Source: Escherichia coli
GTDB lineage: Bacteria; Pseudomonadota; Gammaproteobacteria; Enterobacterales; Enterobacteriaceae
NCBI RefSeq assembly: GCF_050320075.1
Contig: NZ_CP190018.1
Reading direction: 5' to 3' (one strand)
Length of the DNA stretch: 64,000 bases
Shown here: positions 1,712 through 7,098 of the stretch, in pieces
Position numbering within the stretch: position 1 is the stretch's first letter
How the letters are laid out: every line of letters starts with the position of its first letter
Program-made: the position numbers and the translations under genes
Notes under the pieces: generated by a model
What the model saw: only the letters and a program-made list of their open reading frames with translations
Databases searched by the model: none
What the model was told of the DNA's origin: nothing

Positions 1712-3033
1712 TGCCTAAACTTGTCACTTGGATGAACAACCAGCGGGTAGGCGAGTTAACGAAGTTAGCCAATGGCGCGCACACCTTTAAGTATGCACCG
1801 GAGTGGTTAGCCAACCGTTATGCCAGACCGTTATCACTTTCGCTGCCATTGCAGAGGGGGAATATCACCTCTGATGCCGTATTTAACTTCTTCGATAACC
1901 TGTTACCCGATAGCCCGATTGTACGTGACCGGATCGTTAAACGTTATCATGCCAAATCCAGACAACCGTTTGATTTATTGTCAGAAATAGGGCGAGACAG
2001 CGTTGGTGCCGTGACGTTAATACCCGAAGATGAAACCGTAACGCATCCGATAATGGCATGGGAAAAGCTTACTGAAGCCAGACTTGAAGAAGTATTAACG
2101 GCTTATAAAGCAGATATCCCTCTGGGCATGATTAGAGAAGAAAATGACTTTCGCATCTCGGTTGCTGGCGCGCAGGAGAAGACAGCGCTGCTCAGAATAG
2201 GCAATGACTGGTGCATTCCGAAAGGAATAACGCCGACGACGCACATCATTAAATTACCGATTGGCGAAATCAGGCAGCCCAATGCGACGCTCGATCTCAG
2301 CCAAAGCGTTGATAATGAGTATTACTGTCTGCTGCTGGCGAAAGAACTTGGGTTGAATGTGCCGGACGCAGAAATCATTAAAGCGGGGAATGTGCGCGCG
2401 TTAGCGGTCGAACGTTTTGACAGGCGTTGGAATGCTGAGCGAACGGTTTTACTTCGCTTGCCACAGGAGGATATGTGTCAGACATTCGGTTTACCTTCAT
2501 CGGTGAAATATGAATCAGATGGAGGCCCAGGCATCGCGCGGATCATGGCTTTTTTGATGGGGTCCAGCGAGGCGCTGAAAGATCGCTATGATTTTATGAA
2601 GTTTCAGGTGTTCCAGTGGTTGATTGGCGCAACGGATGGCCATGCAAAAAACTTCTCCGTATTTATTCAGGCTGGCGGCAGTTATCGACTCACGCCATTT
2701 TACGACATCATTTCAGCATTTCCGGTATTGGGTGGCGCAGGAATACACATCAGCGATCTCAAACTGGCAATGGGGGTTAACGCATCCAAAGGCAAAAAAA
2801 CGGCAATCGATAAAATTTATCCGCGACATTTTCTGGCGACAGCAAAGGTGCTGAAATTTCCGGAAGTGCAGATGCATGAAATCCTGAGTGACTTTGCCAG
2901 AATGATTCCGGCAGCACTGGATAACGTGAAGACTTCATTACCGACAGATTTTCCGGAGAACGTGGTGACGGCAGTTGAAACCAATGTGTTGAGGTTGCAC
3001 GGCCGGTTAAGCCGAGAATACGGTATTAAGTAA
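1711..3033 (+). CDS. hipA: HipA serine/threonine kinase toxin
   Basis: 440-aa product starting MPKLVTWMNNQRVGELTKL; Gly22 present (wild type at that position, not the hipA7 G22S allele). Confidence 0.95.
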   Translation: MPKLVTWMNNQRVGELTKLANGAHTFKYAPEWLANRYARPLSLSLPLQRGNITSDAVFNFFDNLLPDSPIVRDRIVKRYHAKSRQPFDLLSEIGRDSVGAVTLIPEDETVTHPIMAWEKLTEARLEEVLTAYKADIPLGMIREENDFRISVAGAQEKTALLRIGNDWCIPKGITPTTHIIKLPIGEIRQPNATLDLSQSVDNEYYCLLLAKELGLNVPDAEIIKAGNVRALAVERFDRRWNAERTVLLRLPQEDMCQTFGLPSSVKYESDGGPGIARIMAFLMGSSEALKDRYDFMKFQVFQWLIGATDGHAKNFSVFIQAGGSYRLTPFYDIISAFPVLGGAGIHISDLKLAMGVNASKGKKTAIDKIYPRHFLATAKVLKFPEVQMHEILSDFARMIPAALDNVKTSLPTDFPENVVTAVETNVLRLHGRLSREYGIK

Positions 3034-3232
3034 GATATGGGGTTTTGGTCGTTGTTAATGAGCAGGACAATCATGACCGCCAACGACTGGATTCTCCCTT
3101 GGTTTATGTTTGTCAAAGCTCAGTGAAAATGTCTAATCACTGGCTCATTAGAAATGTCCATATGTTGAAAAGGCCGCTGCGAAAATCCCTCCCGCAACGG
3201 CCTCTTTAGCATAACGTCATTATGCGAACCAA

Positions 3233-4585
3233 TTATGGTTTGAGTTTATACTTCTGACCATTAATGATTTTTTTGATTAACTCGAATGCAGCGGGGGAAT
3301 ATTTATGAACACCTTCCTTCCCCGTTTTCACTAGCACATGATAGTTATTATCTGAGGATTTAATATTAAAACCAGTTTCCTTGTGTATTCTTTCTAATAC
3401 TTTATGGACGTAATGCCAAGATCCCATATCAAGTAATTTTGCAAGTTCAGATATGGTGTAGGGATAGCTTGCGTTAAGTGCTTGCCCATTATTTAACTCT
3501 GCAATTCCATAAAGTTTCGCTAACACGTTATCTTGCTCAGCAATGTTCTTAAGCATTTCAAAATCATATGGAAGCTCTTGTTTTACAAGAGATTGAGAGG
3601 CAAATGTATAGGTTCTGGCTAATAGCGCCCTGACTAATTTTGGGTTAACACTGATTTCTGGCGTATTTGACGATAGGGCATCATAAATCCAACCGAAATC
3701 ATTGGCATAGATCACTTTGATTCGGATGCTTTTATTTTCACCAACACCAATCAAAATCTCTTTCTGGTGTGAACCTGTACCTTCACATTCTGGACTAAAG
3801 GAAACCAAATAAATATTCGGAATCAAAGCGTTATTTGGCGCAATTATCTCATCAATATCAGACAGGATGGCTTTAATATTCTCATCATTAATACTATAGC
3901 CAATGAAGAACAACGGATGCTCGACGAAATATGTTAATAGTTTTGCACTGATATACTTTTTACGCTTATAAAACTCAACATAGTCTTCATTTGTTATAAT
4001 GATGCTTTCTGGTTCTTTACTACTGCCGTGAATCTTCATGATTTCACCGTATGTAGTATAGTTAACAGTCACAACATTATGGCCAACTATCGGTTGGTAG
4101 TTATCAAATATCTTTTCAAGCAGATCGTCATAGTTTGTTGTAATAATGGCATGGGGCCTTACTTTTTTTAACTTTTCAATTTCTTCAGTGTACTCCATTG
4201 CTGAAAAATCAACCGAGTCTGAAAGGTTATTCAACAATGTTGCAATCTCATGCTTGATATATATATCTTTAGAGCTTTTTCCATTGAAATACTGTTCAGG
4301 ATAACGAGATGTCCCCACATCCCAAGCCCACTCAGCGTATGACTCAGAAAAATCACTTGCTATCATTGGTTTATTGTCATTTCTTGTTTGACTGTAGTAA
4401 CCATACGGGCGAGTGATTAATGGGCAAGTTTCAGCGAGATACTTTAACAGGTTTTCCCAATCAGGAGCTTTCAAGTAGCGTTGAGATACCCCTGCACCCA
4501 TAAAGAGAATTGGCTGTACCTGTAAACCTTCAAGACATGATTTGATATCTTCAATTATTTCTGTCTGATATTCAGAGAAGTCCAT
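3233..4585 (-). CDS. SIR2-like (SIR2_2 / DHS-like NAD-binding fold) protein with uncharacterised C-terminal domain; candidate orphan defence NADase
   Basis: 450-aa ORF; N-terminal motifs PILFMGAGVSQ...PDWENLL, then ITTNYDDLLE and KIHGS resemble the defence-associated SIR2 family (ThsA-like/DSR-like); markedly low GC compared with flanks; function is inferred. Confidence 0.6.
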   Translation of the reverse strand: MDFSEYQTEIIEDIKSCLEGLQVQPILFMGAGVSQRYLKAPDWENLLKYLAETCPLITRPYGYYSQTRNDNKPMIASDFSESYAEWAWDVGTSRYPEQYFNGKSSKDIYIKHEIATLLNNLSDSVDFSAMEYTEEIEKLKKVRPHAIITTNYDDLLEKIFDNYQPIVGHNVVTVNYTTYGEIMKIHGSSKEPESIIITNEDYVEFYKRKKYISAKLLTYFVEHPLFFIGYSINDENIKAILSDIDEIIAPNNALIPNIYLVSFSPECEGTGSHQKEILIGVGENKSIRIKVIYANDFGWIYDALSSNTPEISVNPKLVRALLARTYTFASQSLVKQELPYDFEMLKNIAEQDNVLAKLYGIAELNNGQALNASYPYTISELAKLLDMGSWHYVHKVLERIHKETGFNIKSSDNNYHVLVKTGKEGVHKYSPAAFELIKKIINGQKYKLKP

Positions 4586-4799
4586 ACTTTAGCCTTTAGG
4601 ATGTGAGATGCTGGAGTAGTAAATCGCCGCGGAGCGGTTCGGGGTTCTGTGACACCCGAATTTTACCTCGGTTTCCTTTGTATATAATATCATTGAAGTT
4701 ATTTGCATTTCTCAGAAATCTTCTCTGGCTTTGATTGCTATAGCCGAAAGATAGCGCACACTTCGCCGTTGGTCAGTTAGTACGAGGTTTCCGCCAAGT

Positions 4800-5835
4800 T
4801 CACCTTTTACCAAAGATGGCCTCAGAGCTTCCCTGAAGCTTTATCATGGTTTCAAGTAGGTCATCTTCGTTCAGTGAGCGCTGAGATTTGTTGATGCTAG
4901 GCGCGTGCCGTCTGCGGGAAGGCTCATCACCAGAACAAGGTAACGATAGTGAGCGATTATTGTCCCGTTTTCTCTGGACCTGACGGGCAACATCCAACAC
5001 ATGGCCAAGTCTCTTGTTATCTACAATGGCGACGGGCTCAACCTCAGAAAGCCGGTCATAGGTGGAGTAGGGTAGCAGCACGCCATTTAGTCGCAGCTCC
5101 TTATGTCCGTCAGGATAATGCCAGACATCAATATACTTGCCGATGGCTCTTCGACTGTACTCGTTGTCCTCAATCAGATAGAGCATTTTATCGTATTGTA
5201 CAGTCAGATTTTTTGATACCCGGCGAGGCTCTCGCCAGGTAAATTCTGCATCAAGGTCATCGTCTAATGCCAGCGGCCGGTACGCGTTAAAATCATGCAA
5301 GGGTTCTTTGGCAAAGCGCCGGTTATAATCCGCCATGTATTCTTCTGCAAATGCATTGGCCGCTTCTATTGTACAGATCCCCTTAAGCCTGAGCTCCTTA
5401 ACGAGTCGGTCCTGAAGTGTCAAATGAGCACGTTCAACGCGGCCTTTTGCCTGGCTGGTTTCAGCACACAAAGGAGTAATATTAAGGCAGCGCATGGCCC
5501 TGGCAAACTGGGTATCGCCGAGACCGGTGGTGGCGTGCTTATTATTGACTCTGAATACGCTGGCTTTATCGCTGTAGAGGATCATCGGTTTACCGTATTC
5601 AGTGGTGGTCGCAGCCATCAATTTGTATCAGCTCGCCAGTACAAGGACGCCGGTAACGAGGCTGATGAATTTTCGGTGCGCGTTGTCTGCGGGGGATCCA
5701 GAGTCCCGCGTTTATCATGAGACGTCGGATGGTTTCCTTTCCAAGGACCAGACCGTGAACTTCCTCCAGCTTTTCCCGCGCCAGCGTGGGGCCAAAATCA
5801 CGGTAGTGCTCCCGGATTATACTGAGTGCCTCCAA
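4800..5835 (-). pseudogene. rve-type (integrase-core, DDE) transposase split by a frameshift; IS remnant
   Basis: Two overlapping ORFs in different frames (5599..5835 N-terminal part ending IQIDGCDHH; 4800..5621 C-terminal part with YSDKASVF and KGRVERAHLTL motifs) together resemble one IS481/ISNCY-like transposase; family assignment is tentative. Confidence 0.55.
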
Positions 5836-6198
5836 TGAGCCACAAATAGAACATTAGCATTGAGCCTCTATAATTTTGGTGCGCATAATGTATATTATGT
5901 TAAATGTGGTGGGTTTGTTCTTAAGTTCATGTGTTCCGCTCTTTCAGTAGCTTAACTGATGAATCAGTCAGCAGCTCTTGCCGTGCAAGCTACGCGGCGG
6001 TTCGTACCAGATTGGCCACCTCCATCTCCTGGTTCGCTTTCCCCTCCCCCCGGTAAACCTCACCCAACGTTAATTAATGATGTCAGTATGTGGGCGCTAT
6101 CCTTGTATGTAAAATCCACTGACGATTACGCCCATCTGTGAAAAAAAACTCACAATGCCATTCGATGCATCTCCATACTGAACGAGGCGTTATCGTCT

Positions 6199-7098
6199 TT
6201 ATCGCCCCGTAGTGGATATCAGAAAATCAATCAGGGCCTTCACTCTTTTCGTTTTACCCGCGTTTTTGGGGTAATAGAGATACACTGGCGGGTAGGTTTT
6301 CCAGTATCTCTCCATCACCGGAATAAAGCGCTCCCTGTCCGGCTGTAACTGCCAGACAGGCTCAAACAAGCGCCCAATTCCCAGCCCGTTACGGATCCCG
6401 TCTGCCATAACGTCAATATCGTTGCTGATTAACTGCCCCGGCATCTCAACGGTCAACTGCTCACCGCGATCGTTCAGGAGCAGCGGAAGGATGCGGTTGT
6501 TGGTGATAAAACGGTAACCAATCAGCTGGTGATGACAGAGATCTGCCGGCACTTCAGGCGTTCCATGTCGGGAGAGATACGCTGAGGATGCATATAATCC
6601 TTCACGAAACGGTTTCATTAACGGTCGGGCCACCACCCCTCCCTCAAGAATATCGCCAAAACGGATCCCCAGATCAAAACGCTCTTTGATGATATTCACG
6701 GTACCGTCGTAGACCGAAATTTCTAACTGTATACCCGGATATTGCTGACAGAATTCTGCCATCGCAGGCTTAAGAATTAACAGGTAGGCAAAACGCGAGA
6801 GCGTAATTCGCACCATCCCAGAGGGCTCCTGATGCTGGTCGCGAATGCTTTCAAGTGAGTTTTCCAGCGACTCCACCGCCGCAGCGGTCTGTTCCAGCAA
6901 TAATTGACCGGTTTCCGTCAGCTCTATACGGCGGGTCGTACGCACAAAAAGCGGATGGCCGATATACTCTTCCAGCAGCTTTAGTGCATTGCTGACGGAG
7001 GGAGGCGTAATTTCCAGTTTCCTTGCGGCTGCCGAAATATTGCCCTCCCGCGCAATGCTCTGGAAGATGCGAATCTGGTTATAAAGAGCGTTATTCAT
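6199..7098 (-). CDS. LysR-family transcriptional regulator
   Basis: 299 aa; N-terminal HTH IAREGNISAAARKLEITPPSVSNALKLLEE typical of LysR family; divergent from adjacent operon. Confidence 0.85.
   Translation of the reverse strand: MNNALYNQIRIFQSIAREGNISAAARKLEITPPSVSNALKLLEEYIGHPLFVRTTRRIELTETGQLLLEQTAAAVESLENSLESIRDQHQEPSGMVRITLSRFAYLLILKPAMAEFCQQYPGIQLEISVYDGTVNIIKERFDLGIRFGDILEGGVVARPLMKPFREGLYASSAYLSRHGTPEVPADLCHHQLIGYRFITNNRILPLLLNDRGEQLTVEMPGQLISNDIDVMADGIRNGLGIGRLFEPVWQLQPDRERFIPVMERYWKTYPPVYLYYPKNAGKTKRVKALIDFLISTTGR

Follow-up and report, generated by a model that had tools for sequence, protein, structure and literature searches.

A decayed IS1202-family element beside the chromosomal dif site of Escherichia coli holds a SIR2 gene as passenger

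Insertion sequences of the IS1202 family are recognised by their one large DDE transposase, of about 400-500 aa, which has an N-terminal HTH, a DD pair and a Q residue seventh after the catalytic E, and by a target duplication of 5 bp (5-6 bp). The published traits of the ISAba32/ISAjo2 subgroup comprise a 5-bp duplication, an IRL (the transposase-side inverted repeat) abutting a XerC arm, TGT/ACA tips and a second internal binding site, together with a DD pair located between D1 and D2, Q at E+7, members carrying passengers (tIS) and tandem arrays; tISKpn21 targets dif and dif-like sites (PMC10132070; bioRxiv 10.1101/2022.12.17.520857). The fold of the subgroup's transposase was modelled on TnsB (PMC10132070). 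Other mobile DNA uses the Xer system. An IMEX is recognised by integration into the central region of dif, by dif or hybrid sites in direct orientation at both ends and by the lack of a target duplication, and an Acinetobacter-type dif module by two inverse, recombination-competent XerC-XerD sites with 6-bp spacers. The hypervariable accessory regions (pHVRs) of Vibrio inoviruses were reported to carry defence genes (PMC12715192).

The window (the whole stretch of 64,000 nucleotides of E. coli DNA that was analysed) has three sizeable ORFs between hipA (stop at 3033) and a LysR regulator gene (6199-7098, minus strand), namely a SIR2 gene and a transposase in two frames, as stated in a first-pass annotation of the sequence. 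There, the transposase was taken for an IS remnant bounding a SIR2 islet, with its end ~200 bp from the SIR2 gene. The islet as a whole proved to be the IS, with SIR2 internal, and the far end (IRR) lies at 3111, beyond the SIR2 gene. Positions 3111-5872 form a single transposable element of 2762 bp (2.76 kb) with terminal inverted repeats at both ends. It is very probably a fossil 'transporter IS' (tIS) of the IS1202 family, ISAba32/ISAjo2 subgroup, inserted beside dif with the SIR2 gene as passenger. The features of the region are:

3034-3110, no strand: native hipA-dif spacer, 77 bp (comparison with the empty-site genome L002)
3106-3110, no strand: left copy of the target-site duplication, ATGTT, the last 5 bp of the hipA-dif spacer
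3111-3160, plus strand: IRR, passenger-side terminal inverted repeat, TGTCAAAGCTCAGTG... (inverted-repeat search; family alignment)
3161-3230, minus strand: inovirus attP-derived block with a XerD-arm remnant, a stem-loop and an inverted dif-like site (homology to inoviruses)
3204-3230, within the attP-derived block: inverted dif-like site GGTTCGCATAA-TGACG-TTATGCTAAAG, 5-nt spacer (dif-like site search)
3233-4585, minus strand: gene of a SIR2_2 protein, 450 aa, WP_001551127.1, ORF intact (Pfam PF13289, E=3.7e-26)
4624-4676, plus strand: inovirus intergenic hairpin block, GCGGTTCGGGGTTCTGTGACACCCGAA..., in the 5' leader region of SIR2 (homology to inoviruses)
4677-4799, minus strand: conserved backbone from the transposase stop to the hairpin block (near-invariant across passengers)
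4684-4692, minus strand: extended -10-like TGATATTAT, candidate passenger promoter (read from the sequence)
4800-5831, minus strand: dead IS1202-family (ISNCY) transposase gene (alignment to the intact relatives L005, L007 and L026)
5832-5872, minus strand: IRL remnant, transposase-side inverted repeat (inverted-repeat search; alignment of relatives)
5873-5877, no strand: right copy of the target duplication, ATTTT, also the 5-bp spacer between IRL and the XerC arm (empty-site comparison)
5878-5905, plus strand: intact chromosomal dif, GGTGCGCATAA-TGTATA-TTATGTTAAAT, the insertion target (28/28 match)
5906-6198, no strand: native dif-LysR intergenic DNA outside the element (collinear with L002)

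The exact junctions are given by the empty-site genome, in which hipA is followed by 77 bp and dif, with a single ATGTT. In respect to this layout the insert ends are clean, and the window shows ATGTT...ATTTT in place of the one ATGTT. The search for terminal repeats and a target duplication proposed in the first-pass annotation was successful, yielding IRR (3111-3160), IRL (5832-5872) and the ATGTT/ATTTT pair. The IRR has a TGT tip and two AAATGTC-type repeats, presumably the outer and inner sites bound by the transposase; its terminal ~50 bp are kept in 14 family members, every one of which finishes with ...TTGACA. The IRL is decayed, with the tip TAT instead of TGT, a 1-bp insertion and its inner part (the inner repeat copy) deleted, and pairs with the IRR over 35 nt at 71% complementarity. 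The two duplication copies (3106-3110 and 5873-5877) are identical at 4 of 5 positions. As these copies differ by one base and the IRL tip is TAT, the window copy fits the end rules imperfectly.

The canonical E. coli dif at 5878-5905 matches at 28 of 28 positions (0 found in 100 shuffles). It had gone unnoticed in the first-pass annotation. The IRL ends at 5872 and the XerC arm of dif begins at 5878, placing the element exactly 5 bp away, and the choice of the chromosomal dif as target explains the position of the element beside hipA. In a strain of the same lineage (L081) an inovirus is integrated in the same dif, which indicates that XerCD still uses the site. The element very probably arrived by DDE transposition with duplication of 5 bp of the target, its transposase-proximal end (IRL) landing 5 bp from the XerC arm, as published for the subgroup.

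The transposase remnant is read in two ORFs of the minus strand (4800-5621 and 5599-5835), annotated in RefSeq as 'ISNCY family transposase; frameshifted; incomplete'. Relatives have an intact transposase of 465 aa to which each fragment aligns, confirming that the two ORFs are a single transposase, and the catalytic residues are divided as previously described, with the first Asp (IQIDGCDHH) in the upstream fragment and the second Asp (LYSDKASVF) and the Glu (GRVERAHLTLQ) in the downstream one. The label 'rve-type' finds weak support, with a Pfam rve score on the intact relative (18.9 bits) below the cutoff of 32.6; the curated match is NCBIfam transpos_ISNCY_2 (477 bits, cutoff 250). The split had been ascribed to a frameshift arising by mutation and not programmed. 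An inactivating mutation it is, but the apparent frameshift is really an internal deletion of 134 bp (junction 5599/5600), in which the stretch WFENRG..VYVDDATS..GYIEK was lost, and a 5' deletion of ~310 bp had been missed (junction ~5831-5833, from the alignment to intact relatives). Codons 1-78, start codon included, went with the latter, as did the promoter and the inner portion of the IRL. A programmed -1 frameshift of the IS3 type (orfA/orfB) is rejected, because the intact relatives have one continuous 465-aa ORF and the split corresponds to the 134-bp deletion. The transposase of the window copy is dead through the two deletions. These, with the decay of the IRL, would have followed the insertion and fixed the element in one E. 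coli lineage.

The remnant retains D1 (IQIDG), D2 (LYSDKAS) and the E with Q at +7 (GRVERAHLTLQ). The HTH and the DD pair (VYVDDATS) are gone from the window copy and present in the intact 465-aa relatives, in which the nucleotide differences from the remnant are only scattered. The intact relatives have TGT/ACA tips at both ends, perfect 5-bp duplications are found in 10 relatives (element lengths 1.5 to 7.2 kb), and two relatives (L014 and L015) are 2278 bp long, the published ISKpn21 length. In 28 of 48 relatives (from other species) a dif-like site lies 78-137 bp upstream of the transposase gene, in the same orientation, which repeats the geometry of the window copy.

The SIR2 gene is located between the transposase stop (4800) and the IRR, hence inside the IS, and was brought in as a passenger; the IS does mark the arrival of the gene, as had been suggested. 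An identical insert is present in 213 of 5426 complete E. coli genomes, none of which has SIR2 at this site without the IS remnant (0/213), so that the refuting case named in the first-pass annotation was not seen. The hipA-dif junction is uninterrupted in 5065 of the 5426. The backbone is also present on 737 PLSDB plasmids, and the same backbone occurs with four different passengers, with sharp boundaries. The passengers of the relatives (0.7-5.7 kb) take the same position between transposase and IRR. Those found include SIR2/PDC-S25, an AbiJ-like protein, a ThsB-like TIR with PDC-M50A, a CHAT protein and a TCAD9 system; non-defence passengers (GNAT-MarR, GrpB, a 5.6-kb metabolic cluster) are also seen. 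No copy combining an intact transposase with the SIR2 passenger was found.

Both flanks of the passenger are homologous to filamentous-phage DNA. On the IRR side, the attP-derived block (67 bp) is 92.5% identical to the attP region of a dif-integrated inovirus of E. coli G5 (L092) and 85% to a further one (L083); the 3150-3240 block gave no match in a phage collection, its homology being seen only against prophages in bacterial genomes. The block is conserved across sister elements holding four different passengers, and its site at 3204-3230 is the sole dif-like site in the 64-kb window besides dif. On the transposase side, the hairpin block (53 bp) is 91.8% identical to the 'major intergenic region' of phage If1 and 90.6% to the L092 inovirus, and all IMG/VR contigs carrying its 26-nt core (24/24) are inoviruses. 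The order attP - slot - hairpin is shared by 19 of these 24 contigs, with slots of 400-1460 bp, and a Providencia inovirus prophage holds a 75%-identical SIR2 in the same slot. The AbiJ-like, ECs_2282-set, TIR-set, DUF6904 and GNAT passengers had no match in 15 IMG/VR inovirus slots, and among 10 sampled inovirus slot proteins no PADLOC family was recognised, Pfam naming one HTH alone.

The passenger slot would be bounded by half of a folded attP and by the intergenic hairpin that travels with the Rep gene, and the homology of both flanks suggests an inovirus integrated at a dif site as the probable source from which the module was captured. The whole subfamily may be an IS-inovirus chimera, in which an IS1202-family IS took the phage accessory slot with its flanks, now homology anchors for the swapping of genes. 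We offer this tentatively, as a serious possibility that falls short of likely. In the chimera reading, the flanks could serve as anchors because they are conserved in resident inoviruses integrating into the IS-abutted dif. If two IS copies had once flanked the cargo (the capture model), a vestigial inner IRR would be expected; within 4677-4800 the local alignment score is 13, the mean of 2000 shuffles, which counts against that model.

The backbone at 4677-4799 is nearly invariant in elements carrying the SIR2, AbiJ-like, ECs_2282 and TIR passengers, and the 175 bp of backbone upstream of SIR2, including the -10-like TGaTATTAT, are kept in sister elements with other passengers. That the IS contributes a promoter, as proposed in the first-pass annotation, is consistent with this conserved backbone and its motif, but no sigma-70 site was called upstream of SIR2 in a consensus promoter scan. 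SIR2 transcription would start in the conserved upstream backbone and end at the downstream stem-loop, which was not called as a terminator in the same scan (4 T only). On the minus strand of 3161-3230 a stem-loop is followed by TTTT, resembling a terminator of SIR2. No known RNA was recognised in the conserved leader when 3000-6300 was scanned with Rfam (no match at E<=1).

Several other origins of the islet were considered. A separate acquisition of SIR2, with an ordinary rve-type IS remnant at the islet's margin and the IS end about 200 bp upstream, would agree with the two genes being neighbours across a 214-bp gap and with the GC content, which suggests different origins (0.34-0.39 over SIR2, about 0.48-0.50 over the transposase). 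It is nevertheless most unlikely: a family-type IRR lying beyond SIR2 pairs with the IRL at 5832-5872, the edges of the insert in respect to the empty site are these repeats with the 5-bp duplication, and other genes occupy the same internal position in sister elements. The least probable reading is that of an IMEX, integrated into dif by XerCD like the filamentous prophages, with the transposase incidental. The islet adjoins dif and contains attP-like DNA with a second dif-like site (3204-3230), and true IMEX prophages occupy the same dif in other strains. Xer integration was, however, rejected from the anatomy of the junctions. The insertion lies 5 bp outside the XerC arm and misses the central region, one intact 28-mer represents dif, and the side towards hipA shows no hybrid site. 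The inner dif-like site is inverted, with a 5-nt spacer and no partner XerC arm, and transposition is indicated by the 5-bp duplication together with the terminal inverted repeats. Xer recombination might instead have mobilised the passenger cassette alone, as a dif module like those of Acinetobacter plasmids, in place of homologous exchange with phages; the target dif and the internal site stand in inverse orientation on either side of transposase and passenger, a layout like that of dif modules, and ISKpn21 was reported inside a dif module (PMC10132070). Such a module is very unlikely here, given that the variable region is the passenger alone and not transposase plus passenger, that the internal site with its 5-nt spacer is the bottom half (lower strand) of the phage attP hairpin, and that the other passenger boundary shows no second dif-like site.

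The function of the passenger of this tIS also has two readings. Its protein matches the PADLOC family PDC-S25 (PDLC04968; E=2e-82, 275.9 bits, residues 10-354), which is a candidate family only, for single-gene phage defence. The residues N151 and H186, invariant among 30 homologues, correspond to the catalytic Asn (TTNYD) and His (KIHG), and the modelled SIR2 domain matches the NADases DSR2, ThsA and KomC. As a member of the PDC-S25 candidate family, the protein most likely acts alone against phages by consuming NAD+. A housekeeping NAD-dependent protein deacylase is suggested by the RefSeq product name ('SIR2 family NAD-dependent protein deacylase'), and the defence role of SIR2 is only a candidate one; we nonetheless consider a deacylase unlikely, since the Pfam domain is SIR2_2 (PF13289), the nearest solved relatives by sequence and fold are the anti-phage NADases DSR2, ThsA and KomC, the PDC-S25 match has E=2e-82, and the gene is accessory on mobile elements and in the inovirus accessory slot. 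Against the INPHARED phage collection SIR2 matched no inovirus, only distant proteins (about 30%) of tailed phages of Gram-positive hosts, and literature searches on WP_001551127.1 and PDC-S25 found no experimental paper on the protein.

With DSR2, Thoeris ThsA and Kongming KomC the passenger shares the SIR2 fold and the conserved catalytic Asn and His. At the C-terminus of its 450 aa is a small helix-strand domain (residues ~367-441). In DSR2 (about 1000 residues) the N-terminal SIR2 domain is followed by a large ~700-aa C-terminal sensor region that binds the phage tail tube and is absent from the passenger. The sequence match to DSR2 is confined to SIR2-domain residues 137-244, and the assignment as DSR2 was rejected (450 vs ~1000 aa; NCBIfam Dsr2 23.7 bits, cutoff 1400). 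ThsA possesses a C-terminal SLOG (cyclic-ADPR-sensing) domain and a neighbouring TIR protein (ThsB), both missing here. The ThsA models match the SIR2 core alone (residues ~130-250), no TIR gene is present in the element, and Thoeris ThsA was likewise rejected. No ThsB or KomA/B partner genes were found within the element.

An apparent 'gene plus IS scar' beside hipA is, then, a precise targeted insertion at the chromosome dimer-resolution site. A dif-targeting family described for the most part on plasmids of Acinetobacter and Klebsiella has here brought a candidate immune gene to the chromosomal dif of E. coli, where it is fixed in about 4% of complete genomes. The passengers of the IS1202 family, earlier reported as hypothetical proteins, now include several defence-type genes, a set that marks these elements as a likely compact carrier of single-gene defence systems, present on hundreds of conjugative plasmids. 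From the phage-derived flanks, a concrete and testable path can be proposed for how a transposon may gain and swap cargo, the source being filamentous phages with which it has its target in common. If so, genes of accessory or defence function (SIR2, AbiJ-like, TIR and others) could move by exchange among phages, tIS copies on plasmids and the chromosome, and dif would be an exchange point common to two mechanistically unrelated kinds of mobile element. This joins the literature on Xer-exploiting phages with hypervariable regions to that on dif-targeting IS; literature searches found no prior description combining IS1202 with defence or filamentous phage.

In general, the element belongs to a known kind, the dif-targeting tIS; the homology of its passenger flanks to filamentous-phage DNA is a new observation, which points to a possible chimeric origin. 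It has the same transposase family as tISKpn21 (2278 bp; Harmer, Pong & Hall 2023, PMC10132070; Siguier et al.), and the transposases of L014 and L015 show 71% identity with the one in the intact relative of the window copy. Common to both are the TGT...ACA ends, the second internal repeat, the 5-bp duplication, the IRL 5 bp from the XerC arm and a passenger between transposase and IRR; the ISKpn21-like elements form tandem arrays and occur at chromosomal dif. The passenger differs, being SIR2/PDC-S25 in the window element and a DUF6904 protein in the ISKpn21-like elements, and the inovirus-derived blocks surround the passenger in the subfamily of the window only, the ISKpn21-like elements having none. 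Unlike tISKpn21, the window copy is dead, with two deletions and a decayed IRL. As in Tn7/TnsB-type transposition, insertion is in one orientation beside a conserved chromosomal site, with TGT/ACA ends and multiple transposase-binding repeats; unlike Tn7, there is one transposase protein without TnsA, TnsC or TnsD, and insertion is directed to the XerC side of dif and not to glmS. The dif-integrating filamentous prophages (IMEX, with a CTXphi-type folded attP) use the same dif site, and the E. coli inoviruses share the 67-bp attP hairpin and the 53-bp hairpin in the same order and orientation around a variable slot. In contrast to the inoviruses, the element is without phage replication, coat and assembly genes, sits outside dif and holds only an attP half-site, its mobility being due to a DDE transposase where the dif-integrating inoviruses depend on XerCD.

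Between hipA and the LysR gene, every ORF listed by the first-pass annotation is present in the window:

up to 3033, hipA (end of the gene)
3233-4585, minus strand, SIR2_2 ORF, 450 aa
4800-5621 and 5599-5835, minus strand, two transposase fragments
6199-7098, LysR gene

The GC content falls to 0.34-0.39 in the SIR2 stretch. In YZLc1-3, where the region is identical, RefSeq records a 'SIR2 family NAD-dependent protein deacylase' and an 'ISNCY family transposase; frameshifted; incomplete; missing N-terminus'. In the complete genome NZ_CM163380, which represents the empty site, hipA and the LysR gene are only 397 bp apart. Reading the two side by side places the insert of the window between ...GGTTTATGTT and GGTGCGCATAATG..., and these borders give a span of 3111-5872 (2762 bp). 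The right-hand neighbor, GGTGCGCATAATG, is the canonical 28-bp E. coli dif, the dimer-resolution site acted on by XerC and XerD; the 64 kb contain a single copy, at 5878-5905 (28/28 positions matched, versus none in 100 shuffles), which RefSeq leaves unannotated in the identical strain. The insert starts with TGTCAAAGCTCAGTG... and ends with ...GAGCCTCTATA, which are imperfect inverted repeats. ATGTT (3106-3110) precedes it and ATTTT (5873-5877) follows, against one ATGTT in the empty site, which indicates that 5 bp of target were duplicated and that one base was substituted later. The gap between the element and dif is exactly 5 bp, on the side of the XerC arm.

The 3111-5872 element is an IS1202-family transporter IS (an IS with passenger genes) targeted to dif, a kind already known. 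The behavior seen here is that of the ISAba32/ISAjo2 subgroup (PMC10132070, Harmer, Pong & Hall 2023; bioRxiv 10.1101/2022.12.17.520857, Siguier et al.), whose members insert next to dif or pdif, 5 bp away on the XerC side, with the transposase-side repeat (IRL) always proximal, produce 5-bp duplications, form tandem arrays at a single site, and have TGT...ACA tips with a second internal transposase-binding repeat; the transposase has 400-500 aa, a DD pair between D1 and D2, and a Q seven residues past the catalytic E. The same two reports also describe a few transporter IS, e.g. ISKpn21 (2278 bp), which has a passenger ORF. An intact 465-aa relative, encoded by a 3.0-kb element on the plasmid NZ_JBUBJS010000002 (L005 5006-8015), scores 477 bits with NCBIfam transpos_ISNCY_2 and only 18.9 bits with Pfam rve, and the remnant in the window retains the IQIDG, LYSDKAS and GRVERAHLTLQ motifs, with Q at +7.

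Scanning one genome per species for relatives of the transposase gave 74 loci, of which 48 were examined. A dif-like site in the expected orientation is located 78-137 bp upstream of the transposase start in 28 of these 48, and ten of the 28 show perfect 5-bp duplications; the elements measure 1.5-7.2 kb, two of them 2278 bp. In E. coli G5 (NZ_CP060065) a transposase of this type, named 'ISNCY-like element ISKpn21 family' by PGAP, is 5 bp from the XerC arm. The G5 locus (L092 1-17211) comprises this ISKpn21-family transposase and a DUF6904 passenger, with ATATT before the XerC arm and, beyond the IS, two tandem inovirus prophages followed by an intact dif; it looks like a snapshot of IS and phages using one dif. 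Two distinct IS1202-family elements are found in tandem (L005 3547-8052, L003 7814-7841) beside a dif-like site of ColV/IncF-type plasmids, TGTGCGCACAA-TCTATC-TTATGTTAAAT.

The transposase of the window is dead, and its lesions were mapped by alignment to intact relatives. A deletion of ~310 bp, with the junction near 5831-5833, took the inner IRL, the promoter, and codons 1-78 including the HTH. The break described at first pass as a frameshift is real, but by the same alignment it is a 134-bp deletion at 5599/5600, with which the stretch carrying the conserved DD pair is gone. The IRL is damaged as well, with a TAT tip in place of TGT and a 1-bp insertion (an extra T); together with the G to T change in the duplication, these form a cluster of three changes at 5868-5877, outside which the element is identical among the genomes listed. 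The widespread plasmid copy with an AbiJ-like passenger has a separate lesion, an 11-bp deletion.

The adjoining dif is intact. In NZ_OZ547048 (L081 9078-11960), of the same lineage as the window, the same SIR2 element is present and a filamentous prophage (Rep, DUF2523, Zot) is integrated in the adjoining dif, so Xer recombination there is not abolished. At least 80% of the interval is present in 213 of 5426 complete E. coli genomes, with 99.9-100% identity among the matches listed. The hipA-dif junction is unbroken on the XerC side in 5065 of the 5426; about 350 genomes are without it, and the SIR2 element accounts for 213. Some genomes (hits H144-H146) match the hipA-dif query just to base 90, inside dif, an ending characteristic of Xer-integrated elements; of these, the one retrieved (H144, NZ_CM128601) has two tandem inoviruses integrated at dif. 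The backbone is also found on 737 PLSDB plasmids; most of them are conjugative, and E. coli, Klebsiella, and Salmonella are the main hosts. The identity band of the AbiJ-like variant holds 584 plasmids, and many of the sampled records show it at a near-identical coordinate (about 15.6-15.7 kb). Elsewhere in the window there are two IS1 copies (15499-16196 and 48074-48771), one interrupting a fimbrial usher gene (truncated, 13805-15484) and the other directly upstream of bdm.

The SIR2 gene lies between the transposase stop (4800) and the passenger-side repeat, IRR (3111-3160), and hence inside the element; it is a passenger. On E. coli plasmids, sister elements that have the ends, transposase, and flanking backbone in common with it contain other genes in this position, and in the alignments conservation is lost within a few bases of 3232 and of 4626.

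Passengers of related elements
Sister element 1: AbiJ_NTD4+DUF7014 protein (STM4504 family)
Sister element 2: ECs_2282 zinc-binding protein and two small ORFs
Sister element 3: PDC-M50A protein and a split ThsB-like TIR protein
More distant relatives: DUF6904 protein; GrpB; MarR-GNAT fusion; 1268-aa CHAT protein; TCAD9/HATPase/AAA trio; 5.6-kb metabolic cluster

These sets indicate that the passengers are often, though not always, conflict-related. The larger elements at dif-like sites include a 6.8-kb one in Erwinia (L011 5889-12691; TCAD9/receiver, HATPase, and AAA proteins), a 5.6-kb one in Providencia (L017 5874-11447; the 1268-aa CHAT protein), and a 7.2-kb one in Enterobacteriaceae bacterium LSJC7 (L007 5889-13094; SDR, LysR, two quinone oxidoreductases, and a hydrolase).

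The passenger gene is bordered on both sides by segments related to filamentous phages. Apart from dif, the window contains a single dif-like site, GGTTCGCATAA-TGACG-TTATGCTAAAG; it maps to 3204-3230 (minus strand), and its spacer is 5 nt long. In other E. coli genomes dif is occupied by filamentous prophages, and the prophage end beside the hybrid dif folds into one long hairpin (-60.6 kcal/mol) with the order XerC arm, central region with a 6-nt bulge, XerD arm, and stem-loop, which resembles the CTXphi-type folded attP. Window 3161-3226 is homologous to the stem-loop and lower strand of this hairpin, the attP block being 85% identical to the inovirus of NZ_CM128601 and 92.5% to that of G5. 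Across SIR2 from this block, the segment 4624-4676 matches a portion of the phage If1 'major intergenic region' at 91.8% identity and the G5 inovirus at 90.6%. The inovirus order is attP, small accessory gene (minus strand), hairpin, Rep; that of the element is attP part, SIR2 (minus strand), hairpin, transposase.

All 24 IMG/VR contigs with the 26-nt hairpin core encode inovirus Rep and/or the Zot/pI assembly protein, and 19 of the 24 have the 5-nt-spacer site 400-1460 bp to the left of the hairpin, with low-GC minus-strand genes of no known function in between. The core is identical across inoviruses with Rep proteins 72-100% identical (e.g. If1, L100/L091 5052-5100), and a 40-bp stretch is 95% identical in the marine inovirus Alteromonas phage phiAFP1; the core may be the Rep-cognate origin or have some other cis-acting role. 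An inovirus prophage on a Providencia contig has its slot beside attP filled by a SIR2 homologue (75% identical) and a DUF6953 gene. Hypervariable accessory regions carrying defence genes are described in dif-integrating Vibrio inoviruses (PMC12715192). The two tandem inoviruses of NZ_CM128601 (L083 9076-12200) are different, and their sequences part directly past the XerC arm of the inverted attP site, which is also the boundary where the transporter IS passengers vary.

Judging from these sequence comparisons, the passenger module of this transporter IS subfamily was probably captured from an inovirus. IS copies would have inserted at the XerC sides of both dif copies flanking a prophage, and deletions would then have stripped out the phage genes in between; this model predicts a leftover inner IRR, which is not detectable. 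A 74%-diverged relic elsewhere in some chromosomes (L006 6001-7691, L084, L085), with ypjA, ankyrin, and DUF6387 genes as neighbors, keeps the IRR, the attP block, a SIR2 homologue, and the hairpin block, and its transposase is gone. A diverged relic of the same architecture indicates that the SIR2-bearing element is an old one that diverged as a whole.

The original transposase promoter is missing from the window copy. The conserved backbone at 4677-4799 has, on the SIR2 strand, TGATATTAT (4684-4692), a putative extended -10 element by its resemblance, and the attP-derived stem-loop with TTTT just past the SIR2 stop codon is a candidate terminator; a consensus promoter/terminator scan called neither the -10-like site nor the stem-loop.

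The SIR2 protein matches the PADLOC candidate PDC-S25 (E=2e-82), and its matches to ThsA, LmuA, and Dsr models are confined to the SIR2 core. Full-length homologues of ~450 aa are widespread, with N151 (TTNYD) and H186 (KIHG) invariant in the 30 compared. A literature search found no experimental report on this protein. The solved structures closest to the passenger protein, in sequence and in predicted fold (mean pLDDT 79.6), belong to the anti-phage NADases DSR2, ThsA, and KomC. Its last ~75 residues make up a small helix-strand domain. The most likely function is NAD+-depleting defence. In contrast to ThsA, the passenger has neither the SLOG domain nor a ThsB neighbor, and it is too short for DSR2.

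The window copy is particular in being fossilised, in having a SIR2 defence candidate aboard, and in its location at the chromosomal dif of E. coli. The chimeric IS-inovirus make-up of the passenger slot, apparently undescribed as judged by the literature search, is where most of the interest of the finding lies.
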